DNA from: a virus | Lineage: Duplodnaviria; Caudoviricetes | Virus record (IMG/VR): IMGVR_UViG_3300031992_002338 | Direction: 5' to 3' (one strand) | Length of the DNA: 64,000 bases | In this document: positions 6,977 through 32,391 of the stretch, in pieces | Layout: every line of letters starts with the position of its first letter | Numbering within the stretch: the stretch's first letter is position 1 | Notes under the pieces: model-generated | What the model was told of the DNA's origin: nothing | What the model saw: only the letters and a program-made list of their open reading frames with translations | Database searches by the model: none | Made by a program: the position numbers and the translations under genes

Positions 6977-7447
6977 TTATTCATTATAAGGATTTTCATC
7001 AAAGAAATAATTCTCTTCACTTGGAACGTCATAATCGCTGTAATCGACCTCAATGTTATTTTGAAGAGCTTTTTGAATGATTCCATTGTCTTCTATTGGA
7101 GTGCAATCACCATCTTGGCAATAATCAATCTCAATTACTTCAACTTCTGGATTATCAATTATCTCATCTGGGTCATCTGGCACGTCATAGTCATTGCTTC
7201 TCATACCTTGCTTCAAATATGGGCTACATAAGACATTGTACTTTACGTAAGCAAATGTGTCTTCGCCTAACTCTACCTCTGCCTCGTTCTCTCCTGGACT
7301 TGCGCTCAGTTGTTGCTGAACCAATCCTTGAGCAATGTCTTGTAAGAGTAGGTCATCACCACCTTGCTCACGCAAAATTCTCTCAACGCTACGTTGAATG
7401 AGATTGTGCAAATCTGACTCAGTTAATCTAATTATTTTTTTCATCAA
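6977..7447 (-). CDS. Acidic protein with N-terminal IRLTESDLH module (putative head-internal protein)
   Basis: MKKIIRLTESDLHNLIQRSVERILRE; TATTTATA motif upstream. Confidence 0.7.
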   Translation of the reverse strand: MMKKIIRLTESDLHNLIQRSVERILREQGGDDLLLQDIAQGLVQQQLSASPGENEAEVELGEDTFAYVKYNVLCSPYLKQGMRSNDYDVPDDPDEIIDNPEVEVIEIDYCQDGDCTPIEDNGIIQKALQNNIEVDYSDYDVPSEENYFFDENPYNE

Positions 7448-7603
7448 AAAATTATTTCTTTATATTATAAATATAACAAACTACGAAAAATATTCAATAT
7501 TTTTTGATATTTTTGTTAATATTGTCATATTCTTTAGTCACATAATGATATATGGCATATTCAGTACCCACAATGAATACTAAAAATAGTATTTCAAATG
7601 TTA

Positions 7604-8041
7604 TCATAATCCAAGATAGTCTAATATTGGATAGCAATTTTTTCTTATCTCTTCTTTCTCGTCTTTTGTGTATTTTGATTTATCACTGATAAGGTAATCA
7701 ACCTCTTCCCTACCATTTCTTACAGCTACGCATTTGGTAAGGTGACTACATTCCCAATCTATAACTGCACCAAGCCAATCAATCTTATTCATGCCATTTC
7801 TTCTACCGTAGAAGATATGGTGCTTATTATGATGCTTATGCCATTGTCTTACTCGGTTATAATCGCCCCAAATAAGTTTAAGCCAAGGCTTCTCAATGTC
7901 ATGTAAAAGCCATTTAGGTTTCCATACACCTAGCTTCCATGCAGTATAGTTGAAAGCAAAATAGTGCCAAGCCCAATATTTAAAACTAGATTTTTGAGAA
8001 ACATCAAATTTTCTCCATTTAATTTTTAAATTTTTAAACAT
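7604..8041 (-). CDS. HD-superfamily (DUF5662-like) protein
   Basis: H...HDIEK...H.HHNKHH...DW pattern. Confidence 0.6.
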   Translation of the reverse strand: MFKNLKIKWRKFDVSQKSSFKYWAWHYFAFNYTAWKLGVWKPKWLLHDIEKPWLKLIWGDYNRVRQWHKHHNKHHIFYGRRNGMNKIDWLGAVIDWECSHLTKCVAVRNGREEVDYLISDKSKYTKDEKEEIRKNCYPILDYLGL

Positions 8042-8043
8042 AA

Positions 8044-8595
8044 TTACTGTTGATAATATGGAGAGCTATATACGCTGTCAGAATATACTATATCAGCATC
8101 CTCATTGGCTCTCTCCAATACTTTGTTCTTGATTACTAAAATATCATTTGTGTTGTATAATGGGATATTATAGTGCCTACATACAAGTCTAACATTATCA
8201 TACCTATAGAAATTAGGATTGCAGAATACAATTAATTTTCTAGTTCTTGCAAATAGTCCTAGCTCCATGAGTGATATTGGTGACTTTGAGTTACCCAATA
8301 TATTCATCACAATTAGGTCAGCCCTCTCAAGATGGTATAACTCCCAATTGATTTGTTTTTCAATCTCATTATTATCATTACTATCTGGCCAATCCTCTCT
8401 CCTTGGATTATAAATCATAATAGGATGAACCGTATCTTCTTTATTTAATTCATCAATAATGGCTTGTTGGTGGTTTACCGAATCGCCACAATCTATAGTA
8501 CCTCCTAGAAATAGGTTTAATGGTACTACACCATCTATTGTGTAAACACTATTATCATAATTGAAAGGAGGTAAAAATAATTTGTTCTTCTTCAT
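8044..8595 (-). CDS. Nucleoside 2-deoxyribosyltransferase-like protein
   Basis: LFLGGTI...YNPRR...QINWEL..LERAD...SPISLMELG. Confidence 0.8.
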   Translation of the reverse strand: MKKNKLFLPPFNYDNSVYTIDGVVPLNLFLGGTIDCGDSVNHQQAIIDELNKEDTVHPIMIYNPRREDWPDSNDNNEIEKQINWELYHLERADLIVMNILGNSKSPISLMELGLFARTRKLIVFCNPNFYRYDNVRLVCRHYNIPLYNTNDILVIKNKVLERANEDADIVYSDSVYSSPYYQQ

Positions 8596-8642
8596 AACAG
8601 CGCAAATATATAGATTTAAAATGGGAAATCCAAATAAATCAC

Positions 8643-9311
8643 TTATTTTTTAGGCGAAATTAAGACTTTATCTGCAATACCCAAATCTTCTACAGCTTCT
8701 TGCCCTATATACCACTTATCCCTATCACATAAATGTTCAATTTCTTCAAATGATTTTCCACAATTCTCTGAAAGAATATGGTATATATCATTTTGGCATC
8801 GTATAGTTTGTTCCATTTCAATCTTTATATCAGCAGTATGCCCTTGAAATCCGCTTGAGACAGAATGCACCATTACCCTACTATGTGGAAGAACAAATCT
8901 CTTTCCCTTTGTTCCACAGCTTAAAATTACAGCGCCCATTGATGCTGCCATGCCTAGGCATACTGTTGAAACATCTGACTCTATGTAATTAATAGTATCA
9001 ATGAGTGAAAGACCCGATACTACATCCCCTCCTGGACTATTTATGTAAATGCTAACATCCCTATTATCCACTGAATTTAAATATAGCAATTGAGCAATCA
9101 TAATGTCCATCGTTTGGGCATCTACTTGCCCACTAAGAAAAAGAATTCTATCTTGAATCAAGCGGCTAAATACATTCATTTCTGAAACTCGCATGGCTGA
9201 ATCTCGTTCTTCTATAATTGTTGGATAAACAGATTCAGCAAAAGATGAATCCACATTAACCTTGTCTTTTGCGAAATGTTTAAAATCTTCAAAAGTGCCT
9301 ATTTTATTCAT
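8643..9311 (-). CDS. clpP: ClpP protease proteolytic subunit
   Basis: VFSRLIQDRILFL, IAQLLYL, YINSPGG, GMAASMGA (Ser), RVMVH (His), DRD (Asp). Confidence 0.93.
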   Translation of the reverse strand: MNKIGTFEDFKHFAKDKVNVDSSFAESVYPTIIEERDSAMRVSEMNVFSRLIQDRILFLSGQVDAQTMDIMIAQLLYLNSVDNRDVSIYINSPGGDVVSGLSLIDTINYIESDVSTVCLGMAASMGAVILSCGTKGKRFVLPHSRVMVHSVSSGFQGHTADIKIEMEQTIRCQNDIYHILSENCGKSFEEIEHLCDRDKWYIGQEAVEDLGIADKVLISPKK

Positions 9312-9330
9312 AATTTATATAAATTAACGG

Positions 9331-10536: not shown

Positions 10537-10551
10537 TTTTTTTATCTAATT

Positions 10552-13349: not shown

Positions 13350-14450
13350 ATGAAAACAAAAGATTTTATAAAAAAAGCTATAAAAATTCATGGTAATAGA
13401 TATGATTATTCAAAAGTAAATTATATTGATACAAACACCAAAGTTTGCATAATTTGTCCAGAGCATGGCGAATTTTGGCAAACCCCACATAATCATTTAC
13501 GTGGAAGAAAATGTAAAAAATGTTATTTTGATTCAGAAAAATTAAATACGATTAGTTTTATAGAAAAAGCAAAGAAAGTTCATGGGGATAAATATGACTA
13601 TTCAAAAGTAGAATATATTGATAGTAAAACTAAGGTATGTATAATATGTCCTAAACATGGAGAATTCTTACAGACACCACATAATCATCTTTCTTGTAAA
13701 GGATGTCCAAAATGTAGCGGAACAAAAAAATTAGACACTAATATTTTTATACAAAAAGCTAAAGAAATTCATGGTGATATATATGATTATTCAAAAGTAG
13801 AATATAAAGGGTCAAAAGAAAAAATATGTATAATATGTCCTAAACATGGAGAATTTTGGCAAACCCCAAATAACCACCTTTCTAATCAAGGATGTCCTAA
13901 ATGTAGCATTGACAATATAACAAATAAAAACAAGTTTACTACTGCTTTTTTCATTGAAAAATCGAAGAAAGTTCACGGTGATAAGTATAACTATTCGAAA
14001 GTAGAATACGTAAATTCAAAAACTAAAATTTGCATTATATGTCCTATACATGGAGAGTTTTTGCAAGCACCAAACAAACATCTTTTAGGGCAAGGATGCC
14101 CACTATGTAGTGAAAGTAAATTAGAAGAAGAGACTAGAATATTATTAGAAAATAATAAAATAAGATTCGAATATCAAAAAAGGTTTGATTGGCTAGGTAA
14201 AAAAAGTTTAGACTTCTATCTTCCAGATTATAATATTGCAATTGAATGCCAAGGTAAACAGCATTTTATTCCTAGTGATTTTTTTGGTGGAGAAAAAAGG
14301 TTATTAGAAACCAAAGCAAGGGATAAAGAAAAAGCCATCTTATGTAAAACTAACGATGTAAATCTAATATATTATAATTATAACGAAAATACGAGAATAT
14401 TAAAAAATAAATTGTATGATAAAATAAACAGAACAAGTACACGACCATAA
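13350..14450 (+). CDS. Free-standing homing endonuclease-like protein: four Zn-binding repeats plus a PD-(D/E)XK/Vsr-like domain
   Basis: Repeats FI.KAK.VHGDKYDYSKVEY...KVCIICP.HGEF.QTP..HL...GCPKC, and C-terminal LDFYLPDYNIAIECQGKQH. Confidence 0.85.
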   Translation: MKTKDFIKKAIKIHGNRYDYSKVNYIDTNTKVCIICPEHGEFWQTPHNHLRGRKCKKCYFDSEKLNTISFIEKAKKVHGDKYDYSKVEYIDSKTKVCIICPKHGEFLQTPHNHLSCKGCPKCSGTKKLDTNIFIQKAKEIHGDIYDYSKVEYKGSKEKICIICPKHGEFWQTPNNHLSNQGCPKCSIDNITNKNKFTTAFFIEKSKKVHGDKYNYSKVEYVNSKTKICIICPIHGEFLQAPNKHLLGQGCPLCSESKLEEETRILLENNKIRFEYQKRFDWLGKKSLDFYLPDYNIAIECQGKQHFIPSDFFGGEKRLLETKARDKEKAILCKTNDVNLIYYNYNENTRILKNKLYDKINRTSTRP

Positions 14451-14936: not shown

Positions 14937-15273
14937 AATAATTTTGAATCGTGTTAATTAACCAGTTACTGCTGCTAACAAATGCCCCATCTAAAAACAC
15001 TGTTATGTACCAATATTCTAATGGCAAATAAACCATAGCCATTGGAGTAAATGATATTGTAGGAATGACTAACAAATTAAGTGCTGACATTCCAAATCCA
15101 AGCCACCACCCACTACATATAAAGCATGAAAGCATTTCATCTAATTGTGGGTGTATCTTTTTTGCGATTTCATGCATTTTATCAAAGCAATGAAATGGTC
15201 CATGAGCATATATTATTGTATTGGCGATACCATAACAAATAATTATATAAATGAATAATATTAACCACTGCAT
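14902..15273 (-). CDS. Membrane protein, DUF1360-like
   Basis: Hydrophobic segments and an L.C..C.G.W motif. Confidence 0.6.
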   Translation of the reverse strand: MQWLILFIYIIICYGIANTIIYAHGPFHCFDKMHEIAKKIHPQLDEMLSCFICSGWWLGFGMSALNLLVIPTISFTPMAMVYLPLEYWYITVFLDGAFVSSSNWLINTIQNYFETNSYEQGNE

Positions 15274-16936: not shown

Positions 16937-17803
16937 TTAATAACCACTTTCTGCATCATTAGAAAAATCGCCAGATTTAATCTTTGTATATATTATTCTA
17001 GCAAGTTGCTCACCAAGTGTACTATTAAACCAATTTTCAAATTGTGATGTGTGTAAATCATTTGGATTCATTTGATGCCCAAAACCGCTATGTCCTAATA
17101 CTACATCATCAACTTGGAAGTCTCCGTCAAATGTTCCTCTGAATGACACGGCTTCTGACATACCCTCACCATAATCAGCCTCAAATTCATAATATGAATC
17201 TCCTGTTTCCCATACATATACCTTTCTTAAATCATCTGGTTTTATATGTGAGACATCTGATATTGGGTCTATATCATCATCACCCATTTCATATGGGTCA
17301 CTAGTGCTAGCAAAATCACCGTCTGAATATTGGTTGAAATCTTCTTTTAAAATACGTCTAACAGAGTTTTCAATTATTTGACGTAAATCGCTCTCTGTTA
17401 ATCTTATAATCTTCTTCATGCGTTTTTTATTTTCTACTATATTAGTTTTGGCATATTGACCTTGTGTTGGGTCAATCCAAGCTACATCGTCTAAATTAAC
17501 AACTTTACTATAAACTTTATTACTACCAGCATAACTCATGGCTTCCATCTTAGATGGTGTGACAAATGCACCATTTTTAATTGGATAGGAACTATAAACC
17601 ACAATTTTTCCGCTATTTAACGCATTTATTGCGTCTTTTTTTGAAAAATCTGGAGTTATTCCATATATTTCACCTTCTTCTTGCCAAACCTCTTCATATG
17701 TTTTTATATCAGAAACATCTTTAATCCATGTATGATTGCCTAGTTCTGAATTGAAGGGATTGCCATTAGTTATAAGTTCAAATTGTTTTTGTTTGTCTAC
17801 CAT
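16937..17803 (-). CDS. ART-like N-terminal domain, internal IRLTESDL module and acidic C-terminal domain
   Basis: IVVYSS.PI.NG.FVTPS..EA..YAG..VYSK.V.LDDVAW, plus internal KKIIRLTESDLRQIIENSVRRILKE. Confidence 0.55.
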   Translation of the reverse strand: MVDKQKQFELITNGNPFNSELGNHTWIKDVSDIKTYEEVWQEEGEIYGITPDFSKKDAINALNSGKIVVYSSYPIKNGAFVTPSKMEAMSYAGSNKVYSKVVNLDDVAWIDPTQGQYAKTNIVENKKRMKKIIRLTESDLRQIIENSVRRILKEDFNQYSDGDFASTSDPYEMGDDDIDPISDVSHIKPDDLRKVYVWETGDSYYEFEADYGEGMSEAVSFRGTFDGDFQVDDVVLGHSGFGHQMNPNDLHTSQFENWFNSTLGEQLARIIYTKIKSGDFSNDAESGY

Positions 17804-20123: not shown

Positions 20124-20270
20124 TTAATTAAATTGATTTATGTATAATCCCCTTAATAATTGCTCGAACATTAACTTTGTTCTAGCTTTACCATCAGTCT
20201 CTTCATTAAGCTTATCACTTATCTCCCTGACTTTCTTAATTGTATCTGCATTTGCTTCGTAATCTATCAT
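20124..20270 (-). CDS. Small hypothetical protein, 48 aa
   Basis: Read manually as MIDYEANADTIKKVREI...; ATGA overlap with the upstream gene. Confidence 0.55.
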   Translation of the reverse strand: MIDYEANADTIKKVREISDKLNEETDGKARTKLMFEQLLRGLYINQFN

Positions 20271-21028
20271 TGTATATCAAAATCACCTAAATTAAATATA
20301 TGCTCATCAGAATTTGGACAATACTTTTTTAAAAGTGCATTCCAAGGATTTTGACCGTGTGAAGCAGCAATTTTCCCAACCAAACATATTTTGCCATTTA
20401 CTTCAGAAACATATGCTTTTTGGTTTTTTTCCCAAACTTTAGGATTGGCATTCCTATCCTTATATGCTCTTGGGAATTTTTTAATTAAGTCTTTTACACT
20501 CATTTGCTGCCTTTGCTGTTGCATAACTGTTGTATTGGTAGAATCATTTCCTTGTATATGAGAATTTTGTGCATTTGCTTGCATTGGACTCATTGCCATC
20601 ATCCCACCAAGTGCAGCACCTTTCAGCCAATTTCCAATACTTTCGTCTATAACATCATCTACTTTTTTTTTACTTTCAACACGTTGTATTGCCATTGAAC
20701 CGTTTTTAAAGTCCTTGCTTCTCTTTTCAGTTTCACCCATATCAACTTGATTCGTCTTTGCTTGTGTGACATCACCAAGATTATGAGCTTGTCTCATTAT
20801 AGGTTCACTAAATGCATTACCGCCTACTTTTTTTTTGTTTTTTCCGCCAAAAGCGGGTGCATCAATATGGTTTTTAGCTTGGCCAGTTGGGTCTGAAGGC
20901 CCGCCTGCAGGGGAATTAACGCTGAAACTTGATGTTCCACCTAATCCTTCTTCTTTCAAAATTCTATTTACAGTTTCTTTTACAATATTATGTAAATCGC
21001 TTTCTGTAAGTCTTATAATCTTTCTCAT
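20267..21028 (-). CDS. IRLTESDLH-module protein
   Basis: MRKIIRLTESDLHNIVKETVNRILKE. Confidence 0.7.
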   Translation of the reverse strand: MRKIIRLTESDLHNIVKETVNRILKEEGLGGTSSFSVNSPAGGPSDPTGQAKNHIDAPAFGGKNKKKVGGNAFSEPIMRQAHNLGDVTQAKTNQVDMGETEKRSKDFKNGSMAIQRVESKKKVDDVIDESIGNWLKGAALGGMMAMSPMQANAQNSHIQGNDSTNTTVMQQQRQQMSVKDLIKKFPRAYKDRNANPKVWEKNQKAYVSEVNGKICLVGKIAASHGQNPWNALLKKYCPNSDEHIFNLGDFDIQ

Positions 21029-21137
21029 ATTAACGCATTTATTTATATATAAATATAAATATTAGTTAAAATATTTGGTTAATTCAAAGTTTTTTCATAC
21101 CTTTGCAGCGTAAAACAAAAATAAACATTATATTAAT

Positions 21138-21365: not shown

Positions 21366-21959
21366 TTATCTAATTGTTTTTCTAGGTCTTCTAGATTCAT
21401 CGCTTCTGCCTGCCATCAAGCCATTGTTAGGGTTTGTTGGTTGTATTGGTTTTCCCATTGCATTCAATTTTTGTTGCATTTGTGGCTGTTGCTGTTGTCC
21501 TTGAGTTTGTTGTTGTCCACCTTGTGGCTGTTGCTGTTGTCCTTGAGCTTGTTGTTGATTATTTGCAAATCCGCTATTTACTTGTGTATTGAATTGAGGC
21601 TTAGTATTAGCTACGTTTTGAGCCATTTGGCTAAATTCTTGAGCAGTCTTTGTAAATTGTTGGCTAACTGTGTCTAAGTCGCTTACAACTTGTTGATTTC
21701 CACTTTTTTGAGCCACTTGTTGCATTTGTTGAATAATTTTTTGAACTTGCTGTTCATATTTATTGAAAGATGATGCCCAATTACCAGCTTTATATGTTTG
21801 CCCAACATTAAGATTACCTTGTTTCATACCATTCCAAACATTTTTCAAGCCACCCCAAACACCTTCTTGCATTCCATTTTCTCTAATGTATCCCCTTACA
21901 GCTTCTTCCACAAGGAAATGAAGGTCTTGTTCTGTTAATCTAATTGGTTTCTTATCCAT
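21366..21959 (-). CDS. Gln-rich IRLTE-module protein
   Basis: MDKKPIRLTEQDLHFLVEEAVRGYIRE, with a Q-rich tail. Confidence 0.7.
   Translation of the reverse strand: MDKKPIRLTEQDLHFLVEEAVRGYIRENGMQEGVWGGLKNVWNGMKQGNLNVGQTYKAGNWASSFNKYEQQVQKIIQQMQQVAQKSGNQQVVSDLDTVSQQFTKTAQEFSQMAQNVANTKPQFNTQVNSGFANNQQQAQGQQQQPQGGQQQTQGQQQQPQMQQKLNAMGKPIQPTNPNNGLMAGRSDESRRPRKTIR
21481..21557. repeat. Intragenic 42-nt-period tandem repeat (QGQQQQPQ)
   Basis: tgtggctgttgctgttgtccttgag at 21481 and 21523. Confidence 0.7.
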
Positions 21960-21985: not shown

Positions 21986-22138
21986 TTATTTGCCTATTCT
22001 GTTAACTACTCTATACTCTCCATTTTTTGAAATTGTAGCACCACTATTATCTGGGTTCATTACGAAATTACTACCATCCTTAGTTATGCAACCGTCATCA
22101 AAACCATAAAAGTCTAGTGTTCTAATCTTTTGTTTCAT
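21986..22138 (-). CDS. Small hypothetical protein, 50 aa
   Basis: Read manually as MKQKIRTLDFYGFDDGC...; ATGA overlap. Confidence 0.5.
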   Translation of the reverse strand: MKQKIRTLDFYGFDDGCITKDGSNFVMNPDNSGATISKNGEYRVVNRIGK

Positions 22139-22895: not shown

Positions 22896-22978
22896 ATCTA
22901 TATTTATTATATATATATAAATATTAAGATAAACAAAAAATGCAACCATTTCTAGCTGCATTTTTTGTATCGGCTATT

Positions 22979-23455
22979 TCACCATTTTTTATTAACATAT
23001 TCTTGTTGGGAATTAGTTAAATGAGCATTATCACCATATGGTATTGTGTTTGAAAATTCCATTCTGTCCATTCCATTATGATGCTTTTTAAAATTATCAT
23101 CATTTAAATTAGCTAGGTTAGTGCGTTGTTTTTGTTTTCTCAAAACAAAATTTTCTATCATTTCTAAATAAGTTAGCATTTTTCTAGCTTGACCACTTCC
23201 AGTAGAAGTTCCTTTCCAATTTGTATTACCTAATGTGTATGAATTAAGCGAATCGTCATCATTATAAACGTAATTTTCTAAATATTCACGTATTTCTTTT
23301 ATGCTTTTAAGTATTTCATCACTATTATCCAAATATTCAGATTTTCCAGCTGCTGAATCACTTTTTAGCCAGCTTATTTCCGAAATTATCCTTTTAGTAG
23401 ATTCTTTCACAATCTTATGAAGGTCATTCTCTGTTAATCTAACTATTTTTTTCAT
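22979..23455 (-). CDS. IRLTE-module protein
   Basis: MKKIVRLTENDLHKIVKESTKRIISE. Confidence 0.7.
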   Translation of the reverse strand: MKKIVRLTENDLHKIVKESTKRIISEISWLKSDSAAGKSEYLDNSDEILKSIKEIREYLENYVYNDDDSLNSYTLGNTNWKGTSTGSGQARKMLTYLEMIENFVLRKQKQRTNLANLNDDNFKKHHNGMDRMEFSNTIPYGDNAHLTNSQQEYVNKKW

Positions 23456-23531
23456 ATTTATCTCTTTATTTTATACATAAATATTAAGATAAACAAAAAA
23501 GGATGCTAAAAATAGCATCCTTTTAGTCGTA

Positions 23532-23567: not shown

Positions 23568-23592
23568 TGATAAATGATTAAAATTTTCTAAA

Positions 23593-23645
23593 TGCAAATA
23601 TACGAAAAAAAGTTGAACTGACAAAATATCAATTCAACTTTTAGC
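23593..23645 (-). promoter_or_regulatory. Host-type promoter/stem-loop, near copy of 3807-3860
   Basis: tgcaaatatacgaaaaaaagttgaactgac...tcaacttttagc. Confidence 0.75.
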
Positions 23646-24372: not shown

Positions 24373-24937
24373 TACTATTTGCTGCCTTTTTAAGTTTCTC
24401 CATTAAATCGCCATCTTGTGTAATGGAATTACGCCAGTTCATATAAGCATCACGGACTTTACCAATAGTTCTAGCATTTGTTTCACTTAATTGCATAGCA
24501 TCGCACCATAAATAACAGCCATCGGCCCCAGAAGGGTCTGAGTATCTAAATTGAAAAGTAAGATTTAATGATGGTATCTTACCATCAAGTGTCATATCAT
24601 CTGCATCAGGATAATATTTCAATGCATTACTTTCAAATTTAATGTTATCATTAATTGTTTTACGCAATGCCTCTTCTTGTGATGTTCTTACATCACCGAA
24701 CTGTGGGGTATCCTTCTTTATTTCAAATGTTTTTTTGTGGTCATCATCAAGCACTTCCTCTGTCAAGACTTTTTTTTTATCAACAGCCTCTTCCATAAGA
24801 ATCTTAGACCTTGTTATAAAGTTATCAGGTTCGACTTCCTCTTTAACGAACACTTGCGATGCTTGTTTTGCTTGATTAACTCTTCCTTGTCTCAAAGTAG
24901 CTAACATCTTCTTTGTAATACTCATTTCACTTGCCAT
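24365..24937 (-). CDS. Hypothetical protein
   Basis: 190-aa ORF. Confidence 0.7.
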   Translation of the reverse strand: MASEMSITKKMLATLRQGRVNQAKQASQVFVKEEVEPDNFITRSKILMEEAVDKKKVLTEEVLDDDHKKTFEIKKDTPQFGDVRTSQEEALRKTINDNIKFESNALKYYPDADDMTLDGKIPSLNLTFQFRYSDPSGADGCYLWCDAMQLSETNARTIGKVRDAYMNWRNSITQDGDLMEKLKKAANSNE

Positions 24938-24940
24938 ATA

Positions 24941-25372
24941 TTAGTAATCCATTTCTTGACCGTTCCAGAGATAACCAAATATATTGTCTATTCTTTGATT
25001 AACCCTCTCGTTATTTACTTTTTTGATTTCTGTAATCTTTTCTTTAGCTTTCTCAACCATTTCCTCTTCGTTCATGGTGAGTAGTTCGTCTAAATTGTTG
25101 TTTTTTTCTACCAATATCTCACTAGCAACGTGTCTCATAACTTGCTCTTGAAATACCTTGTCATCTTCTGGCTCATTCTCCACTACAACTGACTTATCGG
25201 ATTCCTTATATAAATCCTCATAGTTTAACTCAGGTTTTTCTACCTCAACTACTTCCTCAGTCTGTACTGGTTCAGTTATTGCCACTTCTTCTATCTTTTC
25301 AACTTTTTTAGCCGCAACTTTCTTTGTTGTTTTCTTGGCTGTAGTTTTCTTTACAGTTTCTTTCTTTGCCAT
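24941..25372 (-). CDS. Hypothetical protein with Lys-rich N-terminus and acidic body
   Basis: KKTTAKKTTKK followed by a Glu-rich region. Confidence 0.7.
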   Translation of the reverse strand: MAKKETVKKTTAKKTTKKVAAKKVEKIEEVAITEPVQTEEVVEVEKPELNYEDLYKESDKSVVVENEPEDDKVFQEQVMRHVASEILVEKNNNLDELLTMNEEEMVEKAKEKITEIKKVNNERVNQRIDNIFGYLWNGQEMDY

Positions 25373-25404
25373 ATCATTATAACTTTTACTAATTATAAAT
25401 ATTA

Positions 25405-26145
25405 TTAAACAAATAATTCTTCCAAATCATCATATAATAATATTTTGGAACGTAACTTTCTTAAGCTTACTAATTTTATTTGTCTAACCCTCTCACTACT
25501 CAAATTATATTTTTTGCCAATTTCACTTAAGGTCAATTCTTTGTTGCTATTAAGACCATAATAGTTTTCAATAATGTCACGTTCTCTATCTGATAATGTA
25601 CCTATTATACTTGTGATGATATTTCTCTGGTTCTCAGTCACTTCTCTACTCTTTTCATCATTTTCATTTGATAAATCATTGTTGAATGAGACATCATCTT
25701 CATCATCCTCAATAAGTTTCTTATCCATTGAGGCATCATTATCTATATTTGGCTCTATCTCAACAAAATTAATGGTATTTTTCTTCTTAATAGATTCAAG
25801 CATCGCTTGTCTAATCCACCATACTGCATACGATATAAATTTTACATCTTTCGATTCATCAAATTTATCAATCGCCTTTAATAGCCCCATATTCCCATCC
25901 GATATAAGCTCTGAAATAGGTACTCCACGACCTGTGTAGTGCTTGGCAATATCGAAAACAAACCTAAGATTGGCTTCTAATATTTCATTTTTAGCTTTTA
26001 GATTACCTTTCTTACATTTCTTCAGCAAGCGTTTTTCTTTCGCTTTCGTAAGAGGTTTGTATTTTTTCAAGTCATCATAATAGGCCCTAACGGTTTCTGT
26101 AAAATCATTAGCATATTGGTTCATATTGATTGGTAATATTAACAT
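25405..26145 (-). CDS. RNA polymerase sigma-70 family factor
   Basis: Region 2 (ANLRFV..IAK.Y, LISDGNMGL..A.DKFD, FISYAVWWIRQA) and region 4 (LTLSEIG...LSSERVRQI). Confidence 0.92.
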   Translation of the reverse strand: MLILPINMNQYANDFTETVRAYYDDLKKYKPLTKAKEKRLLKKCKKGNLKAKNEILEANLRFVFDIAKHYTGRGVPISELISDGNMGLLKAIDKFDESKDVKFISYAVWWIRQAMLESIKKKNTINFVEIEPNIDNDASMDKKLIEDDEDDVSFNNDLSNENDEKSREVTENQRNIITSIIGTLSDRERDIIENYYGLNSNKELTLSEIGKKYNLSSERVRQIKLVSLRKLRSKILLYDDLEELFV

Positions 26146-28514
26146 TATTTCAAAACAATCTTTGAAATATTATTTTCTTTTTTAACTACAACGTTATCAT
26201 CACACCAGTCTTTTATCTCATCATTATGGCTTATTATCCACACAAAATCGTATGACTCGGCAATTTTATGGCATAAATGTTTTATATTATCGTAGTTCTC
26301 TTTTGCTACACGTCCAAAAATTTCATCCCAAACAACTGTATTCATTCTTGGTATCGTTGACATATCAGCCAACACTGCTCTCAGTGCCAATGCTGACGCT
26401 GTAAGCTCAAATCCACTACCACTACTTAGGTCTGAATAGACACCATCTTTAACAAGATAGAACATAACCTCATTCTTTAGGTTAATTCCGACTTCCACAT
26501 CAAAGTCGCACACGTCACCAAGCAACTGAGCCAACCTTGCATTAATAATAGGCAATGTCTTTCTAAGTACCATCTTAGTAATACCATTCTTTCCAACAAG
26601 CTCAAGATAAATCTTCCAGTTCTTAATTAAAACCTCTTCCTCCTTAATCTTATTGATAAGTTTCATTCGAGTTTCAATCTGCTCTCTCTGGTTCTTCATA
26701 TCAGATTCATTCTTTGCAATGAAAGATGCATTACTCTCTCTAGTGTTACGCTTGTCACGAATGAATGCATCAGTATTTCTAATCTGGATGTTTATCTCAT
26801 TATTTTTATCAATAGCCTCACTATTTTTCTCATACTCATCTTTTATATGCTTTTTTTCCTTATATTCGTTTCTTAAACGCTCGACATTTACTTCTAGTGC
26901 AGACTTCTTGATTGTCAACTGTGACTTTTTATTATATTGCTCTCTATTCGCTTTCTGCTTGTCTATCTTCTCTTGTATCGTTTTTTGTTCTTCTCTCTTT
27001 TTCTTACCTTCGTTACTAATCTCTTCTACCTCATGTCCTAATATGCAAAGTTTGGCTTGGTCGAAATTTTGCATTTCTCTTCCACAAACTGGGCACAATC
27101 TACTTGACTGAAGGTGTTTGTAATTCTTGTCTGCTGTTCTATACCTCTCAGTTATTACAGCAATCTCAGAATTTACCTTAGATAATTCCTCTTGGAGTTT
27201 GTCGTACTCTTCTACTGAGAAATCAACCTCTCCTATTTCTTGTATCTCTTTGTCGATAAGTTTTATTTCCTCGCTTTTTTTCTTACCTTCGGCAACATCG
27301 TTTGCCATTCTAGCCTTGAGTGTGGTAATATCAATTTTCAGAAGATTCTCATCAATTTGCCTCTTAGAAGATAGTAATGCTGATTTATTGTTTTCTAGAT
27401 TGGCAATTTCTTTTTCTAAACTAGAATTTTCTTTGATATATTTCTTATTCTCTGCTGCCAAAGTCTTGATATTAAGTTCGTAAGCACTAATCTCTTGTCT
27501 CAATGTCTCTTCATTGAACTGGTTTGATACCAACCTTGTTTTAACCTCTGAATTGAATTTCTCCCTAGCAAGAATATCTTTTTCCTCAATAGGAAGCAAA
27601 CCAATCCATCTTGACAGTAATCTACCTCTTTCAGCTTCTTTTTTATTAACAAGGTCATCTAATGAAGACTCTGTAACAGACATAATCAAGTCGAAATCGC
27701 TTTCTCTTCCTATCGCCTCTTTTATAACTTTATTTGTCTGGATACTATTCTCTTCTTGCTGATTATCAATGTAGTCTTCCAACTCTTCTTTATTATCACC
27801 AATAACCTTGTAATATTCTACTCTCTGTGTGGTTTTGCTCTTGGAAGTTCTTTTATCGAGAGCTGGTCTTGACAATGTTCTCTTGATAATATAATCTACG
27901 CCATCAATGTTGATGCAACCCTCAACAACAACGTTAATAGCTTCTGGTATGTGTTTATTGAATATCTTATCTTGTGTTGCAACCTTGGTAGTTTTTCCAA
28001 ACAACAAGAAATGCAGCAAATCTATGGCAAATGTTGTCTTACCACTCTGATTTGCTGGCTCACCACTCAACAATACAAGATGCTTGATACTTGTGAAGTC
28101 GAAATAGTTATCCTCGCCATAACTTAGAAAATTGCTCCACTTAATCCACTTGATAGAATACCTCCTATACTTGTCATATACTTGGTAGTCAATTTGGGCA
28201 TTAATCTCAGAGTCAATCTTCTTTATTAACTCGAAGTCATAGTCAGTTATCTTATTGACATTGAGATAGTCTTGGAACAATTTTAACTGGAATTGAGGGT
28301 CTTGAATGTTCTGAATAATGTCAGTTGCCAATGCAATATCCCCACTACCATCATTTGATATAATAAACTCTGGTATGACTTTTATTCTATCTTTTGGAAT
28401 TTCATATTTCTTGCTAGCTTTAGCAATCAACGAATTAAGCTTCTCCTTAGAATAATCATAAGGAGAAACCTTCCAGTGTATATTTACTTTTGATTTACTT
28501 TTAATGTCAATCAT
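26145..28514 (-). CDS. SbcC/Rad50 (T4 gp46-like) ATPase
   Basis: NFLSYG, NQSGKTT, CPVC zinc hook, coiled coils, SGSGFE signature, DE Walker B, ISH. Confidence 0.92.
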   Translation of the reverse strand: MIDIKSKSKVNIHWKVSPYDYSKEKLNSLIAKASKKYEIPKDRIKVIPEFIISNDGSGDIALATDIIQNIQDPQFQLKLFQDYLNVNKITDYDFELIKKIDSEINAQIDYQVYDKYRRYSIKWIKWSNFLSYGEDNYFDFTSIKHLVLLSGEPANQSGKTTFAIDLLHFLLFGKTTKVATQDKIFNKHIPEAINVVVEGCINIDGVDYIIKRTLSRPALDKRTSKSKTTQRVEYYKVIGDNKEELEDYIDNQQEENSIQTNKVIKEAIGRESDFDLIMSVTESSLDDLVNKKEAERGRLLSRWIGLLPIEEKDILAREKFNSEVKTRLVSNQFNEETLRQEISAYELNIKTLAAENKKYIKENSSLEKEIANLENNKSALLSSKRQIDENLLKIDITTLKARMANDVAEGKKKSEEIKLIDKEIQEIGEVDFSVEEYDKLQEELSKVNSEIAVITERYRTADKNYKHLQSSRLCPVCGREMQNFDQAKLCILGHEVEEISNEGKKKREEQKTIQEKIDKQKANREQYNKKSQLTIKKSALEVNVERLRNEYKEKKHIKDEYEKNSEAIDKNNEINIQIRNTDAFIRDKRNTRESNASFIAKNESDMKNQREQIETRMKLINKIKEEEVLIKNWKIYLELVGKNGITKMVLRKTLPIINARLAQLLGDVCDFDVEVGINLKNEVMFYLVKDGVYSDLSSGSGFELTASALALRAVLADMSTIPRMNTVVWDEIFGRVAKENYDNIKHLCHKIAESYDFVWIISHNDEIKDWCDDNVVVKKENNISKIVLK

Positions 28515-28658
28515 GTTTAATTTTTATTAATTGATGTTTTCCAATTTTTTCATTATATATTTGATAAGCAACAGTTTCTCCACGATTGTTTTTTAATACT
28601 GGAACAAGCTTACCTATGGAATACAAATATTCAAACCCAAATATTCTTCTCTTCTTTC

Positions 28659-29015
28659 TCATTGTTTCTTAATAATTCGTATTTTTCTTACTGTTACATT
28701 TTCTTTTCTTTCTTCAGTTGGTTGACTTTCTTCTTCTGAGTGGTCAACAAATCTGCTAGGATGTCCTTCATCTTGTTTTCCCTCATCCTCTGTGCGAGAT
28801 TCCTTTTTCTTTGTACTTGAGGCATTTTTCTTAATGTCTTTAATTCCGTTATTTTCCCTGTCAATATTGTCTTTTGGTGATACACCGAACTTAACGATAT
28901 TAAAGCCTTGCATTGCGCATCTATTTGCAAATGCGTTGATGTCTTCGATATCGTTAAACTCGCAATAAGACCTAATAGATTTTTCTAATGTAGAATTAAT
29001 ATATAATCTAGCCAT
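28659..29015 (-). CDS. Hypothetical protein
   Basis: ORF after a host-type promoter at ~29028-29062. Confidence 0.65.
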   Translation of the reverse strand: MARLYINSTLEKSIRSYCEFNDIEDINAFANRCAMQGFNIVKFGVSPKDNIDRENNGIKDIKKNASSTKKKESRTEDEGKQDEGHPSRFVDHSEEESQPTEERKENVTVRKIRIIKKQ

Positions 29016-29124
29016 TTAACATATTTTTGCAAATATATATAAAATTTATATAAATTCCAAATATTTGTTAAATTATATTTAAATTTATAATAATATATTG
29101 TATTTTTTAATAAAATATATTAAA

Positions 29125-29895
29125 ATGGATATTAAGAATAATATTATACTAGGACTTGACATCAGTACAAAAACAATTGGTTTTTGCTTGTTAGAAGATA
29201 ATGGAACTGAATATGGTAAAATATTAGAACTTACTCACATAAACCCAAAAGTTTCATCTAAAATATGTTCTACTGAACAACTATTTTTAAAGAAAAAAAT
29301 TTTTAAAGAATTTATACTAAAATACAAAGATTTAGGCATTAAAACAGTAGTAATAGAAAGTCCATTACTTAGGTCAAATAATGTAAATACTGTTTCAACT
29401 TTATTAAAATTCAATGGAATGATTTCAGATTGCATTTACAATGTGCTAGGGATTGTCCCTCAATATATATCATCATATGAAGCAAGAGAATATGCATTTC
29501 CTGACTTAATGGCAACTAGAAAATATGGTAAAGATGGAAAGCAATACCCATTTTCAAAAATACATAAAGAAATTAAAGATTGTAAATTAGTCTTATTTGG
29601 TAGCTATCCTTGGGCAATTGACAAAAAAATTGTTATGCAAGAAAAGGTTGCAGAAATATTCCCAGATATAAAATGGATTTATGATAAAAAAGGCGAATTA
29701 AAGAAAGAAAATTACGATGCAGTAGACAGTTTTGTTTGCTTAATAGGTTGGCTAAATAAACAAAGATTTGGAGAACTTAAATTTTCTAGCGAAATTATCG
29801 GTGAATCAAACGATGGAAAAGGAACAAGGGAAATTTTGTACGTTGTTAAATATTGGAATAAAACTGAAGAAAGAAAGACTTTCATAAACTATTAA
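29125..29895 (+). CDS. RuvC-like Holliday junction resolvase
   Basis: ILGLDISTKTIG, VVIESP, L..FNG, D..DS. Confidence 0.8.
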   Translation: MDIKNNIILGLDISTKTIGFCLLEDNGTEYGKILELTHINPKVSSKICSTEQLFLKKKIFKEFILKYKDLGIKTVVIESPLLRSNNVNTVSTLLKFNGMISDCIYNVLGIVPQYISSYEAREYAFPDLMATRKYGKDGKQYPFSKIHKEIKDCKLVLFGSYPWAIDKKIVMQEKVAEIFPDIKWIYDKKGELKKENYDAVDSFVCLIGWLNKQRFGELKFSSEIIGESNDGKGTREILYVVKYWNKTEERKTFINY

Positions 29896-29900
29896 AAAAG

Positions 29901-29933
29901 AAAAGCGAGATTCAACAAAGAGTCTCGCTTTTT
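29901..29933. terminator. Bidirectional terminator
   Basis: aaaagcgaga...tctcgctttt. Confidence 0.7.
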
Positions 29934-29936
29934 GAT

Positions 29937-31487
29937 TTAATATATTGCGACATTAAATGTCTCTAACTTTTTATGCGCATTCATCATTGCATGAAATTCA
30001 GCCTTAAGCTGTTCAATTGTTTTCTTTTTTCTTGTATTGCTTGCTTGTGGTACTCTATCAGCCCATTCAATACCATCGACACTCTCACTATTATATGTTG
30101 CTGTATATTTATGCTTAGAATGTGTACCATTCCAATAGAAAAATTCAGATTTGCATATGTTCTTATCTAAGTATATAACTTTTACATTTTTATTTTTCCA
30201 AGAAACATAGTTAAATGATAATTGGTCTCTGTGTGACCCATTTTTTAACTCCTTAAACCAATCTTCCATCAATTTAATACAATCTGGTTTATTATGTTTT
30301 CTTAAGATAATGTTGCTCTGTAATAAACCATATTTTTCTGGAAACCCTTCTTTTTTGTATTTTTCCATTTGAGGCTTTGTTATATTACTTTTGTCTTTAC
30401 CCATTCTTACAACTGCATTTGCTTCTGCATAAATACAGTTTCTTTGTGGGTGTTTCGGAACATATACTGAACAATCAGATGTCATTACATTTTTAACAAA
30501 CTTATTAAGGTCTCCTTTAAGTGTGACATTCCCATCAACCCAAATTGATATATCATATTCACTAAGTAAAAGATGTGGGTTTATTTTAACAAATCTCTGT
30601 TTTTTAATTTGAGATAATCCTTCAGTTTCTTTTGGTAACGGTCTTATATCCCAAATATCGCTTTTTAACGTTTTATTGTCAGTAAAACATATATAATCAA
30701 ATCCTTCTGTTATGTGTTTAGGATTTATTAACGAATCGTATTCACCAGTTATACAAGTATATACAACATTTTTGTTTTTTTCATTTGACCACAACTTTTT
30801 ATGTATTTTAAGCCATTCATCAATAGTTCTGTTATGAATTTTTGTGGTTGTATCCATCCAAGAAGCATTGTTATAGTGTTCGATATAATCTGATACTTTT
30901 ATATCTCTATGTTTCAACCCTATTGAGTCTTTACACAGTACTGCGCCAGTATCATACATATCTCCAAGTGGTGTTTTTCTTAGTCCATGCATAAAATTGT
31001 CATCAAAATAATGTATGTTATGCTTTTTGCACATTTCAGTATTTATGAAACATATGAATGGTAATATTCTATTTATTTTTGATGTTGGCTGATTTTGAAG
31101 TTCTCCAACATATATACAATCATCTTGGAATAAATCAGAACAATCTCTTTTTAATAGAACATCTGAATCCATAAGTATGAAATTATCGTTTATAATTTCC
31201 ATACTTTTTTCAACACTAATACAATGTTTTGCGCTGCCCCAATAGTTTCTTCTACCTCCAGACATCTTTCTATTAGGATAATTTTCAAGCCACTTATCAA
31301 AATTGATTATCTGACCTTTTGTATTATCAAAAACAGTGACGTTATCAAATTTAGCTGTAAAAGGTTTTTCATTACTATTATCAAAAATATAAATAATAGC
31401 ATCCTTTACAAATAAATTAATACTCCTTACCAAACACTCAGTAAGGTAAGGAGTATTATAATGTACTATTAGTATGTTTTTATCCAT
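29937..31487 (-). CDS. Two-domain glycosyltransferase (GT-A/GT2-like plus DUF616-like)
   Basis: IVHYNTP...DN...LMDSD, and a second domain VVYTCITGEYD...ICFTD...IWVDGN...HPQRNCIY.E...RDQLSF. Confidence 0.82.
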   Translation of the reverse strand: MDKNILIVHYNTPYLTECLVRSINLFVKDAIIYIFDNSNEKPFTAKFDNVTVFDNTKGQIINFDKWLENYPNRKMSGGRRNYWGSAKHCISVEKSMEIINDNFILMDSDVLLKRDCSDLFQDDCIYVGELQNQPTSKINRILPFICFINTEMCKKHNIHYFDDNFMHGLRKTPLGDMYDTGAVLCKDSIGLKHRDIKVSDYIEHYNNASWMDTTTKIHNRTIDEWLKIHKKLWSNEKNKNVVYTCITGEYDSLINPKHITEGFDYICFTDNKTLKSDIWDIRPLPKETEGLSQIKKQRFVKINPHLLLSEYDISIWVDGNVTLKGDLNKFVKNVMTSDCSVYVPKHPQRNCIYAEANAVVRMGKDKSNITKPQMEKYKKEGFPEKYGLLQSNIILRKHNKPDCIKLMEDWFKELKNGSHRDQLSFNYVSWKNKNVKVIYLDKNICKSEFFYWNGTHSKHKYTATYNSESVDGIEWADRVPQASNTRKKKTIEQLKAEFHAMMNAHKKLETFNVAIY

Positions 31488-31506
31488 CGTTAACTATATG
31501 TAAAAA

Positions 31507-32391
31507 TTATTTTTCAATACCTTTTGAATACCCGTAGTTATATCCAGCTTCGTTATCAAAACCTAATTTAGGGTTTTTCTTATAGTTATCCCACGCTTTA
31601 TCGCTTGCGTCACTTGCAATTCTTTGTTGTTTAGTTCTTGCATCAACGCTACCATATTTATCATTATGGTATCTTGGTCTTGCAGCTGCTCTGCCCCTAA
31701 CTGCATTTAAAGCAAAATTTCCACGAGGGGTGTCACCAATCTCATTTAAATAGTTTTTTACAGATTCTTTAATAAGTCTATGCAAATCTGATTCCGTTAA
31801 TTTAATAATTTGCTTGTTCATTTTAGTATCTTTTTTAGATTCATTTGACCAACCTTTTCCATTTACATAATGAGATTTCCCACTATTAAAATCTTCAACA
31901 TCCTTCTCAGCATCACGGAATTTTTTACCCATATCATTATTACCATAGAATTCCTCTGGGGTTGTTTCGTGGGCATAATCCCACATTCTAGTCCTTCCAT
32001 AACCGCCATCTTTTCCATATTTTTTACTCATATGATACACATTATGGTTTAATCTATGTGGATTCTCATCACCAAAATCATGGTCACGTGAGCCGCTTAC
32101 AGAAAAATCATCCATAGTATTTAAATTTATAGCACCATTTTCACCACCATAAGGTTTATCGTATTGTCCTTCTAACCCATATTTTTTGTCAAATTCGTCA
32201 CGAGCAGCATTCCTGAAATCATAAGACCTATTCCATTGATGTGCTGTATGAGGGTTGTTTGTCCTAAACTCATCATTTTTCCTAGCAGCATTTGCATATG
32301 TCTTCCAATCAAGCTCTGACAGTACGTTCTTTATGGATTCCTCAATAAAGTTATGAAGGTCTCCTTCTGTCAATCTTAAAATCTTTTTCAT
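31507..32391 (-). CDS. Protein with two IRLTESDLH modules
   Basis: MKKILRLTEGDLHNFIEESIKNVLSE and internal KQIIKLTESDLHRLIKESVKNYLNE. Confidence 0.7.
   Translation of the reverse strand: MKKILRLTEGDLHNFIEESIKNVLSELDWKTYANAARKNDEFRTNNPHTAHQWNRSYDFRNAARDEFDKKYGLEGQYDKPYGGENGAINLNTMDDFSVSGSRDHDFGDENPHRLNHNVYHMSKKYGKDGGYGRTRMWDYAHETTPEEFYGNNDMGKKFRDAEKDVEDFNSGKSHYVNGKGWSNESKKDTKMNKQIIKLTESDLHRLIKESVKNYLNEIGDTPRGNFALNAVRGRAAARPRYHNDKYGSVDARTKQQRIASDASDKAWDNYKKNPKLGFDNEAGYNYGYSKGIEK

Follow-up and report, generated by a model that had tools for sequence, protein, structure and literature searches.

The question raised by this locus is what one short peptide is doing in several proteins that otherwise show no relationship to each other. 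In the window (the whole 64,000-nt stretch of viral DNA that was analysed), a module profile based on 271 instances and run against all 907 stop-to-stop frames identified seven strong copies of a 26-residue module with the consensus M-KK-I-I-R-L-T-E-S-D-L-H-x-I-V-K-E-S-V-x-R-I-L-x-E. The copies lie in six genes, named A to F, all on the minus strand (Table 1), with E values of 1e-11 to 1.4e-17. Five are N-terminal and two are internal (residue 129 of B and residue 191 of F, both opening with Met), which is the arrangement given in the preliminary description of this DNA. That description had also held that the module ends in [ILV]-x-E and is followed by unrelated sequence; both statements were confirmed, with [IL]-x-E closing all seven copies and the eight cargo segments, i.e. 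the parts outside the module, being mutually dissimilar (every BLASTP E > 0.6). The seven copies show no variation at L, T, E, D, L, and the closing E. The four looser variants reported earlier fared worse: those in 19298-20116 (E 1.3) and 22135-22689 (E 16) were non-significant and that in 23647-24372 was not among the best 30 profile matches of the 907 frames, so these three are no real matches, and the fourth, in 59852-60130, was marginal (E 0.1).

Table 1. Tagged genes, promoter-like motifs, and context genes in the window. Each module copy starts at the higher of its two coordinates.
Feature	Position	Strand	Module	Profile E value	Remarks
Gene A	6977..7444	-	7367-7444	1.2e-15	155 aa from ATG 7444; module followed by acidic cargo; cargo ortholog in G002 at 379396-379845 (55% identity)
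ATATTTAT promoter-like motif	7467..7474	-			Upstream of A
Phage ClpP protease	8643..9311	-			Context gene
Gene B	16937..17803	-	17342-17419 (internal)	3.1e-15	288 aa; N-terminal domain, residues 1-128; C-terminal cargo beta-rich
Gene C	20267..21028	-	20951-21028	1.4e-17	253 aa; cargo rich in Gly, Pro, Ser, Gln, Asn; partial ortholog in G002 at 393010-393351
Two overlapping ATATTTAT motifs	21049..21062	-			Upstream of C; at 21049 and 21055
Gene D	21366..21959	-	21879-21959	1.1e-11	197 aa; Gln/Asn-rich cargo
ATATTTAT motif	22917..22924	-			Heads an apparent operon (inferred from gene spacing) ending with D
Gene E	22979..23455	-	23378-23455	2.4e-15	158 aa
ATATTTAT motif	23477..23484	-			Upstream of E
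Phage sigma-70-family factor	25405..26145	-			Regions 2 and 4; inside the tagged-gene region
Gene F	31507..32391	-	32314-32391 and 31741-31821 (internal)	1e-14 and 1.9e-16	294 aa; GKGW ends first unit; IGDTPRG-type segment in second unit
ATATTTAT motif	32690..32697	-			Upstream of an 89-aa gene (32400-32669) directly before F

Searched widely, the module profile finds 7,460 protein clusters, and the module has no covering model in Pfam, PHROG, NCBIfam, or PADLOC. The majority of the loci found are in phage records of 300-412 kb, and the window itself shares ~70% DNA identity with three records of 412 kb (G001-G003). The bacterial matches come from rumen Prevotella and Bacteroidales, and no cultured phage in GenBank was found to have the module. 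In 140 out of 154 tagged proteins of the IMG/VR loci, the first module begins no later than residue 10; these proteins are small (median 144 aa), with five of the 154 reaching 300 aa or more, and when tagged proteins of more than 444 aa were searched for, none came up. In representative copies L-T-E is conserved in 96-100% and the final E in 93% (N-terminal copies) or 87% (internal copies), and conservation collapses right after this residue. [LIV]-x-E stands at the canonical end in only 64% of the 154 IMG/VR instances and somewhere in the tail in 94%. Synonymous codons vary within the module (TCA or AGC for Ser; TTA, CTT, or TTG for Leu), and the same codon is used in only 47% of identical-residue codon pairs; because of this variation, the conservation acts on the protein and not on the DNA.

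The module is probably a capsid-targeting propeptide of a T4-like jumbo-phage clade (~300-412 kb) that infects rumen Prevotella. Although a search of the 64-kb window revealed no head genes, Peptidase_S77 (PF03420) and Gp23 (PF07068) are encoded in all five complete relatives (G001-G005) as well as in G011 and G012, and the protease is also encoded in G010, G014, and G015. The first 60 residues of the capsid protein contain four to five [LI]-x-E sites, compared with three to six in the remaining ~615 residues, and four of the N-terminal sites are conserved in all five complete relatives, suggesting that the T4-type protease specificity is kept in the clade. The last of these sites, [IL]-x-E-60, is followed by ATASD, which we take to match the N-terminus of mature T4 gp23, and from this resemblance and from its length the capsid propeptide may end where T4 gp23 would be cut. 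The T4 gp23 propeptide has 65 residues (PMC5694885). Tagged genes also occur close to the head genes. G002 has three between the portal gene and the protease, scaffold-like, and capsid genes, and one of its tagged genes starts 5 nt after the protease gene. The T4 genes 67 and 68 for small core proteins presumably occupy the matching map position. A tagged gene directly follows the protease gene in G001 and lies within about 2 kb of it in G003, G005, G010, and G011; no such synteny was found in G004 and G012.

The cargo itself avoids the putative cleavage site. Observed/expected [LI]-x-E was 0.66 (CI 0.55-0.78) in cargo versus 1.21 in untagged G002 proteins, a depletion reached in none of 500 shuffles, and the second set, the 154 tagged proteins of the IMG/VR loci, gave 0.72 (0.59-0.85) versus 1.29 in 1,300 untagged neighbours. 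[LI]-x-D was unaffected (1.27-1.31 in cargo versus 1.18-1.19 in untagged proteins), so the avoidance is specific to Glu and to the [LI]-x-E spacing. It is strongest between two modules (0.51), as expected if internal copies create processed polyproteins, which was an earlier suggestion; segments before an internal module show no clear depletion (1.0, CI 0.70-1.45, n = 20). The suggestion holds less well for B, whose C-terminal part is a separate gene in G002 with the module at its start. The internal module of B reflects a gene fusion absent from this relative.

Such avoidance is not predicted if the module stays uncleaved and acts as a docking or oligomerisation helix that tethers small late proteins to a common partner other than the prohead core, be it a host factor, phage DNA, or the proteins themselves. 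We consider this explanation unlikely, even though several features would suit it: the module helix is amphipathic (hydrophobic positions L5, I8, V9, V13, I16, and L17), it is very strongly conserved across the 7,460 clusters, many proteins carry two to four copies, and chromosomal copies exist. In the AF2 model of F, moreover, residues 1-8 are coil and the module helix (residues 9-26, pLDDT 74-87) runs into a confidently folded domain (residues 1-185, pLDDT mostly 85-98) and so could belong to the domain itself. The AF2 model of B places the module helix (residues 137-156) on its own within a low-confidence linker (residues 123-176) joining two confident domains, and here the module should therefore be accessible. 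An uncleaved helix would also leave unexplained why protease-type motifs are the most conserved residues, why conservation stops after Glu, and why tagged genes lie in the head cluster.

As to the earlier claim that most tagged genes follow a putative late promoter, the promoter-like motif ATATTTAT sits 25-35 nt 5′ of the start codons of A, C, and E, with B, D, and F located behind such motifs in what appear to be operons. The motif occurs 20-55 nt upstream of 6 out of 12 tagged genes versus 47 out of 578 other genes in G002 (p = 2.4e-4), and of 60 out of 154 versus 202 out of 1,269 in the IMG/VR loci (p = 2e-10). In G002 it is also found ahead of the genes for the capsid, scaffold-like, portal, and sheath proteins. 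The host-type TAnnTTTG motif is under-represented. The sigma-70-family factor encoded among the tagged genes is a candidate reader of ATATTTAT.

The clpP gene of the window gives rise to another explanation, in which the module would serve phage ClpP, acting with a host or phage unfoldase, as an N-terminal degron or recognition tag and would time the destruction of small proteins. ClpP, a second candidate protease besides the S77 enzyme, is encoded in all five complete relatives searched, a tagged gene of G004 begins 86 nt after clpP, and both gene A and its ortholog in G002 are located 1-2 kb downstream of clpP. Clp proteases, however, degrade processively without a sequence-specific site, and hence no [LI]-x-E avoidance would be expected; internal modules and those found near the C-terminus of some proteins fit an N-degron poorly, and the late-type promoter and the head-cluster positions would go unexplained. 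We therefore regard a ClpP degron as very unlikely.

Tagged genes are also present in Prevotella chromosomes, including those of two isolates, sometimes beside an IS1595-type transposase. This had not been foreseen in the preliminary description. Most of the chromosomal copies retain the phage ATATTTAT motif. A capsid address has no obvious use in a Prevotella chromosome, which counts against the capsid-targeting reading. It is hardly credible, however, that the module belongs to the biology of IS1595-type transposons, as helper or passenger, with the phage copies as hitch-hikers and the conservation reflecting the mobile element. In Prevotella sp. MA2016 a tagged gene does adjoin an IS1595/ISXO2-like transposase, and a nearly identical leader of ~70 nt precedes copies in different bacterial genomes and in G002; yet no terminal inverted repeats were found around the four window genes examined (A, C, D, and E), the codon variation indicates selection on the peptide, the 10-19 copies per jumbo genome are scattered and mostly lack a cassette signature, and tagged genes use the promoter motif of structural genes. 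Mobility accounts for the spread of the tag, not for its function. A further idea, which we hold to be distinctly improbable, would combine the two: the tag would be a public capsid-address code, IS1595-type cassettes would trade late promoter-tag-cargo units among Prevotella chromosomes and different phages, and the chromosomal copies would be host- or transposon-owned proteins that are switched on only during infection and ride into, or sabotage, jumbo-phage capsids. That the module is a small nucleic-acid-binding or ribbon-helix-helix (RHH)-like element of a regulator family is extremely improbable, since the Pfam RHH_6 match in F is weak (E 0.003; 18.5 bits versus a cut-off of 27) and the strand-like K-I-I-R-L, which with the helix after it is reminiscent of the start of RHH proteins, appears in the AF2 model of F as coil (residues 1-8) before a single helix (residues 9-26), without the beta-strand and second helix of an RHH domain, while the cargo is highly diverse and mostly not DNA-binding-like and the site avoidance and late-type promoter would remain unaccounted for.

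Returning to capsid targeting, we infer docking, cleavage, packaging, and injection of the tagged proteins in the following way. The tagged genes would be transcribed late, from ATATTTAT-type promoters common to head and tail genes, and the amphipathic module helix would dock each protein on the scaffolding core of the assembling prohead. After closure of the shell, the prohead protease of T4 gp21 type (S77) would cut after the Glu of the [L/I/V]-x-E sites of the module, namely L-T-E, often [IV]-K-E, and the terminal [IL]-x-E. The tag would be chopped to small pieces and the cargo freed inside the head, with internal modules separating one cargo unit from the next in fusion proteins. The cargo, mostly small and hydrophilic, would then exit with the DNA at infection.

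Capsid addresses of this kind are known from T4, in which IPI, IPII, IPIII, and Alt have a capsid targeting sequence (CTS) removed by the gp21 prohead protease (Mullaney and Black, 1996, as cited in PMC5694885); in Alt the cuts fall at ITE-6 and LTE-619 (PMC5694885). The IP loci of T-even phages are polymorphic (Repoila et al., 1994, as cited in PMC3012670), and the idea of diverse proteins with only a packaging address in common has already been put forward for these phages. Like the T4 CTS, the module is a short common N-terminal peptide that ends in (L/I)-x-E and sits on unrelated, fast-turning-over proteins, and the relatives of the window encode a protease of the gp21 family together with a scaffold-like protein and a gp23-type capsid protein bearing such sites at its N-terminus. 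However, the module is two to three times longer (26 residues versus 10-20), comprises up to three [LI]-x-E-type sites where T4 has one, is far more conserved, hardly varying across thousands of clusters, frequently takes an internal position or is repeated, and also occurs on IS1595-type elements and in host chromosomes. To our knowledge, its sequence does not resemble that of the T4 CTS. The likeness to a T4 address tag drawn in the preliminary description gains support from several independent computational lines: the protease and capsid protein of the clade, the site avoidance in cargo, the promoter motif common to tagged and structural genes, and the head-cluster location of tagged genes in some relatives.

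Three other known systems invite comparison. In phiKZ, 201phi2-1, and SPN3US, head and ejection proteins have long N-terminal propeptides that an S80 protease cuts at (A/S/G)-x-E (PMC5694885). These are likewise jumbo phages with many processed inner-head proteins, paralogs with a conserved N-terminus, and several cleavage sites per propeptide, thought to help clear the fragments; but their protease is S80 and not S77, their site has a small residue in place of L/I, and their propeptides exceed 100 residues and are not one portable module on unrelated proteins. Phages and conjugative elements also have polyvalent proteins, which are predicted to be injected, and MuF-linked polymorphic effectors (Iyer et al., 2017, PMC5512222). 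They too are a variable domain repertoire predicted to travel in the particle and to act early in infection; however, a polyvalent protein is one giant concatenated protein anchored by a virion domain, whereas the tagged cargo is distributed among many small genes that each bear an address tag of their own. With their median of 144 aa, tagged proteins are not polyvalent proteins, which have 2 to 15 disparate effector domains, and only the N-terminal domain of B is shared with them. Transporter IS and mobile insertion cassettes of the IS1595 family, which carry passenger genes, resemble the Prevotella loci in which tagged genes lie beside IS1595-type transposases, but they account for gene movement and not for the role of the tag, and no transposon ends of this kind were found around A, C, D, and E, the four genes examined.

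The earlier proposal of a variable effector arsenal goes beyond what the cargo shows, in which no function can be recognised and Pfam domains are almost absent; a PDB fold search with F returned no match, and the ESM Atlas gave no informative match for E. The N-terminal domain of B provides the sole functional hint, as it co-occurs elsewhere with ART-PolyVal, PBECR3, LPD3, LPD23, MuF_C, and Peptidase_S78. Its fusion to domains of polyvalent proteins predicted to be injected may be counted in favour of capsid targeting.

If the capsid-targeting reading is true, the tag marks the full set of head-internal proteins of a sizeable, as yet uncultured group of jumbo phages from rumen and gut, and thousands of protein families would become prime candidates for early anti-defence or host-takeover factors with respect to Prevotella, a dominant rumen genus. 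It would also make available a 26-residue packaging tag with which foreign proteins could be loaded into these phages, as has been done with the T4 CTS. A protein that is enclosed together with a sequence-specific maturation protease should avoid the motif of that protease, so that the avoidance signature could be used on other phages to predict capsid-internal proteins from sequence alone.

A profile built from 271 instances of the module, run against all 907 window frames, recovers seven copies (E from 1e-11 to 1.4e-17) in six minus-strand genes, with the consensus M-(K/R/N/D)-K-x-I-(R/K)-L-T-E-x-D-L-H-x-(I/L)-(V/I)-x-E-(S/T/A)-V-x-x-(I/V/Y)-(L/I)-x-E. The preliminary description had added looser variants in further genes; the frame at 59852-60130 is the next best match (E = 0.1), and the others are to be dropped, being at E ≥ 1.3 or absent among the matches listed. 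Its view that the proteins carry unrelated cargo was borne out, as the eight cargo segments show no similarity to each other (BLASTP E > 0.6). Codons in the module vary freely (both TCA and AGC serve for Ser and TTA, CTT and TTG for Leu, and the same codon is used in only 47% of identical-residue pairs), so it is the peptide and not the DNA that is under selection, and explanations at the DNA level (a conserved promoter, a transposon end, a recombination handle) are rejected. The phage genome region of the window is low in GC (~32%) and its genes include those for a baseplate wedge protein, ClpP, a sigma-70-family factor, tRNAs and an NMN adenylyltransferase. In the window, in the 412-kb relative G002 and in G004, clpP has a tagged gene next to it or 1-2 kb downstream. 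Genome-wide counts were made in G002.

Locations of the tagged genes, module copies and other features discussed in the text
Feature	Location	Strand	Remarks
Tagged gene A	window 6977-7444	-	N-terminal module, start 7444
clpP	window 8643-9311
Repeat-protein gene	window 13350-14450	+
Repeat-protein gene	window 15261-16163	-
Tagged gene B	window 16937-17803	-	internal module, start 17419
B N-terminal domain	window 17420-17803	-	residues 1-128; matches part of the 1,879-position profile phrog_13543
Tagged gene C	window 20267-21028	-	N-terminal module, start 21028
Tagged gene D	window 21366-21959	-	N-terminal module, start 21959
Tagged gene E	window 22979-23455	-	N-terminal module, start 23455
Sigma-70-family factor	window 25405-26145		regions 2 and 4; embedded among tagged genes
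Tagged gene F	window 31507-32391	-	N-terminal module, start 32391; internal module, start 31821
Repeated intergenic stretches	window 21067-21150, 23582-23644, 29015-29084, 32680-32768
599-aa protein	G002:152316-154115 (L114:12316-14115)	-	conserved; two degenerate modules
Locus of clpP with a tagged gene next to it	G004:187287-187980
Chromosomal island	L090:6165-7300		Segatella bryantii DSM 11371; ~1 kb, flanked by a 990-aa glycoside-hydrolase-like gene and an unrelated one

Among 229 N-terminal and internal instances, L-T-E is 96-100% conserved in the N-terminal copies, and the final Glu occurs in 93% of these and in 87% of the internal ones, with conservation collapsing at the residue after it. 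The terminal site is at its canonical position in only 64% of a broader sample and somewhere in the tail in 94%. The module is thus a series of up to three [L/I/V]-x-E units, namely L-T-E, [IV]-K-E and [IL]-x-E. The start Met is kept in ~30% of internal copies. The internal copy of gene B reflects a fusion: G002 has the C-terminal part as a gene of its own, with the module first, and lacks the B N-terminal domain. Two types of post-module segment recur widely (ELDWKTYANAA...KGKGW and EIGDTPRGQ, both present in F), which indicates that the family is assembled from a limited set of shuffled units plus unique cargo. Among 150 representative tagged proteins (P0001-P0150) and in gene F (window 31507-32391), N-E-S-(K/R) often precedes internal modules and many units close with Y-x-K-G-K-G-W just before a module. 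The 599-aa protein of G002 has the modules KLSEAELKQVVKEAA... and KVTEAELKTIVKEAA..., each preceded by N-E-S, and an IGDTP-type segment; orthologs lie near 249.6-250.2 kb in G001 and 388.9-389.4 kb in G003, with open frames of 603-662 aa in three genomes. Possibly it represents an early member with several cargoes that has since diverged.

Genes for a prohead protease of the T4 type (Peptidase_S77) and for a capsid protein of the Gp23 type are present in all five complete jumbo-phage relatives (G001-G005) and likewise in the tag-bearing records G011 and G012, and the protease was also found in G010, G014 and G015. A further record without a protease hit, G013, was dropped as a counter-example, because an intact capsid gene is absent as well and the head region is thus probably missing from the contig. 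In T4, gp23 loses a 65-residue propeptide (PMC5694885). Within residues 1-60 the capsid protein of the relatives has 4-5 [LI]-x-E sites, of which all five phages share four, against three to six in the remaining ~615 residues, and ATASD directly follows the last N-terminal site. By propeptide length and by comparison with the mature T4 N-terminus, this site presumably corresponds roughly to the position at which T4 gp23 is cut. The specificity of the protease appears to be kept in this T4-like clade of rumen Prevotella phages.

If tagged proteins are in the compartment of the protease, their cargo is expected to avoid its motif. The observed/expected ratio of [LI]-x-E was 0.66 (bootstrap CI 0.55-0.78) in the cargo of the 150 representative proteins and 1.21 (1.14-1.28) in untagged G002 proteins of up to 350 aa, and an independent IMG/VR sample gave 0.72 (0.59-0.85) for 154 tagged and 1.29 (1.26-1.33) for 1,300 untagged proteins of the same loci, the sets being not fully de-replicated. 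None of 500 within-segment shuffles (mean 153) came down to the observed cargo count of 100. The depletion is specific for spacing, since ratios came out near those of the controls when zero, two or three residues separated Glu from the hydrophobic position, and for Glu, since [LI]-x-D gave 1.27-1.31 in cargo and 1.18-1.19 in controls, with Lys and Gln behaving like Asp. Segments between two modules were the most depleted (0.51), followed by those after the last module (0.71); those before an internal module gave 1.0, with only 20 segments. We know of no cause for such avoidance other than exposure to a (L/I)-x-E-specific protease. Avoidance of these sites is not predicted if the module is a degron for the phage ClpP, a role with which co-occurrence is compatible, given that ClpP is encoded in all five complete relatives searched and that a tagged gene lies directly downstream of clpP once, in G004. 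Fewer of the observations are explained by a simple docking or dimerisation helix, by a function tied to transposons or by a DNA-binding element than by a capsid-targeting tag.

Most of the tagged genes had been described as following a putative late promoter. The motif ATATTTAT directly precedes A, C and E, and B, D and F lie downstream of one. We take ATATTTAT as a mark of late transcription from the genes that it precedes: in G002 it lies 20-55 nt 5′ of the genes for the capsid protein, an acidic scaffold-like protein, the portal, the tail sheath and a tube-like protein. In G002, 6 of 12 tagged genes have it upstream, compared with 47 of the 578 others (p = 2.4e-4), and in the IMG/VR loci it precedes 60 of 154 tagged genes and 202 of 1,269 untagged ones (p = 2e-10), whereas the host-type TAnnTTTG box is rarer on tagged genes (6/154 vs 153/1,269). 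Such Bacteroidota-type boxes are also present in the window; ATATTTAT differs from this host -7 box mainly in the last base. The sigma-70-family factor of the window could read ATATTTAT. Four intergenic stretches of the window (see the table) contain 40-70 nt that have dozens of matches each in related 400-kb genomes, at 80-90% identity, and look like repeated promoter cassettes, some with a host-type TATATATTTGCAAA box. The two repeat-protein genes, one of them preceded by ATATTTAT, encode three to four repeats of HGDKYDYSKVEY...CPxHGEF that match DUF723 and DUF4379 (treble-clef zinc finger), and are probably homing-endonuclease-like genes.

The position of tagged genes points in the same direction as a capsid-targeting tag. 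One strand of G002 carries the genes for the sheath, a 188-aa protein, the capsid protein and the scaffold-like protein (77676-79169), and the protease gene (79306-80067) comes next on the other strand; a tagged gene (80072-80470) begins 5 nt after it, and beyond two further tagged genes lie a gene for a 537-aa protein and that for the portal. We take this to be the place that the small core-protein genes 67 and 68 occupy in the T4 map. A tagged gene directly follows the protease gene in G001 and lies within ~2 kb of it in G003, G005, G010 and G011; none was found near it in G004 and G012.

AF2 models the module of B as a solitary helix (137-156) within a low-confidence linker (123-176) that has a confident domain on either side, and in the model of F the helix (9-26, pLDDT 74-87) continues into a confident domain of 185 residues. 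Although these domains are confident, the models of F and B had no PDB fold match at E ≤ 0.001, and no match was obtained in PDB sequence searches with B and with 23647-24372 or in an ESM Atlas search for cargo function. The PDB sequence searches thus lend no support to an ADP-ribosyltransferase identity. A Pfam scan of the 150 representative proteins gave scattered single hits only, and the sole functional link is that of the B N-terminal domain with polyvalent-protein partners. This domain, a confident alpha/beta fold in AF2 without a PDB match, is fused in other phages and elements to ART-PolyVal, PBECR3, LPD3, LPD23, MuF_C or S78 prohead protease, and looks like an unnamed polyvalent-protein domain of a widespread uncharacterised family. 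Polyvalent proteins are predicted to be injected together with DNA (PMC5512222). For the tagged cargo, "effector arsenal" and "injection" are conjecture.

No model covering the module was found in Pfam, PHROG, NCBIfam or PADLOC, and no mention of it in the literature; two jumbo-phage survey papers are silent on a leader, capsid targeting sequence (CTS) or prohead protease. Searched with a profile, a set of 1.84 billion representative proteins yielded 7,460 clusters at E ≤ 1e-3, of which 994 reach E ≤ 1e-10, with two to four module copies in many proteins; no tagged protein longer than 444 aa, as a fused form would be, was found, which is weak evidence. In IMG/VR the module occurs mostly in large phage contigs, several of which are ~390-412 kb and rated complete and have 10-19 matches each, scattered on both strands; the window shares ~70% DNA identity with three of these genomes. 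No cultured GenBank phage was found to have the module by tblastn with tagged-protein and module queries, the sole match being weak (E = 5) and to an uncultured 484-kb record, and megablast of 20 kb of the window (24000-44000) gave no match among GenBank phages.

Exact module matches are also present in 19 bacterial contigs, nearly all from rumen Prevotella or Bacteroidales and including two isolates, Segatella bryantii DSM 11371 and Prevotella sp. MA2016, in the latter of which an IS1595-type transposase adjoins the tagged gene. Most chromosomal Prevotella copies keep the phage-type ATATTTAT and several have a nearly identical leader of ~70 nt, which points to recent movement on mobile elements and less to a role in the cell, with room left for other readings. 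Transposon cassettes around the tagged genes of the window were rejected, as A, C, D and E lack convincing terminal inverted repeats. The S. bryantii island, on an isolate chromosome that thus bears phage-type late promoter motifs, consists of a tagged gene (87 aa) and two small genes on the opposite strand, driven by a divergent pair of ATATTTAT motifs 50 nt apart; the surrounding 8 kb shows neither a prophage nor a transposase.

The closest known system is the CTS of T4, whose protease trims targeting propeptides of 10-20 residues off internal proteins and cleaves Alt at ITE-6 and LTE-619 (PMC5694885); T-even internal proteins have already been stated to be a highly diverse set with only the conserved CTS in common (PMC3012670). 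The module system would work alike and agrees with it at the sequence level in the features tested. However, the module is longer, far more conserved, of another peptide family and built of multiple sites, has thousands of cargo clusters and frequent internal copies, and seems to have been spread by IS1595-type elements into host chromosomes. On balance, we lean towards the module being a capsid-targeting tag. The avoidance of [LI]-x-E in its cargo is new evidence and provides a direct handle for proteomic and biochemical tests.
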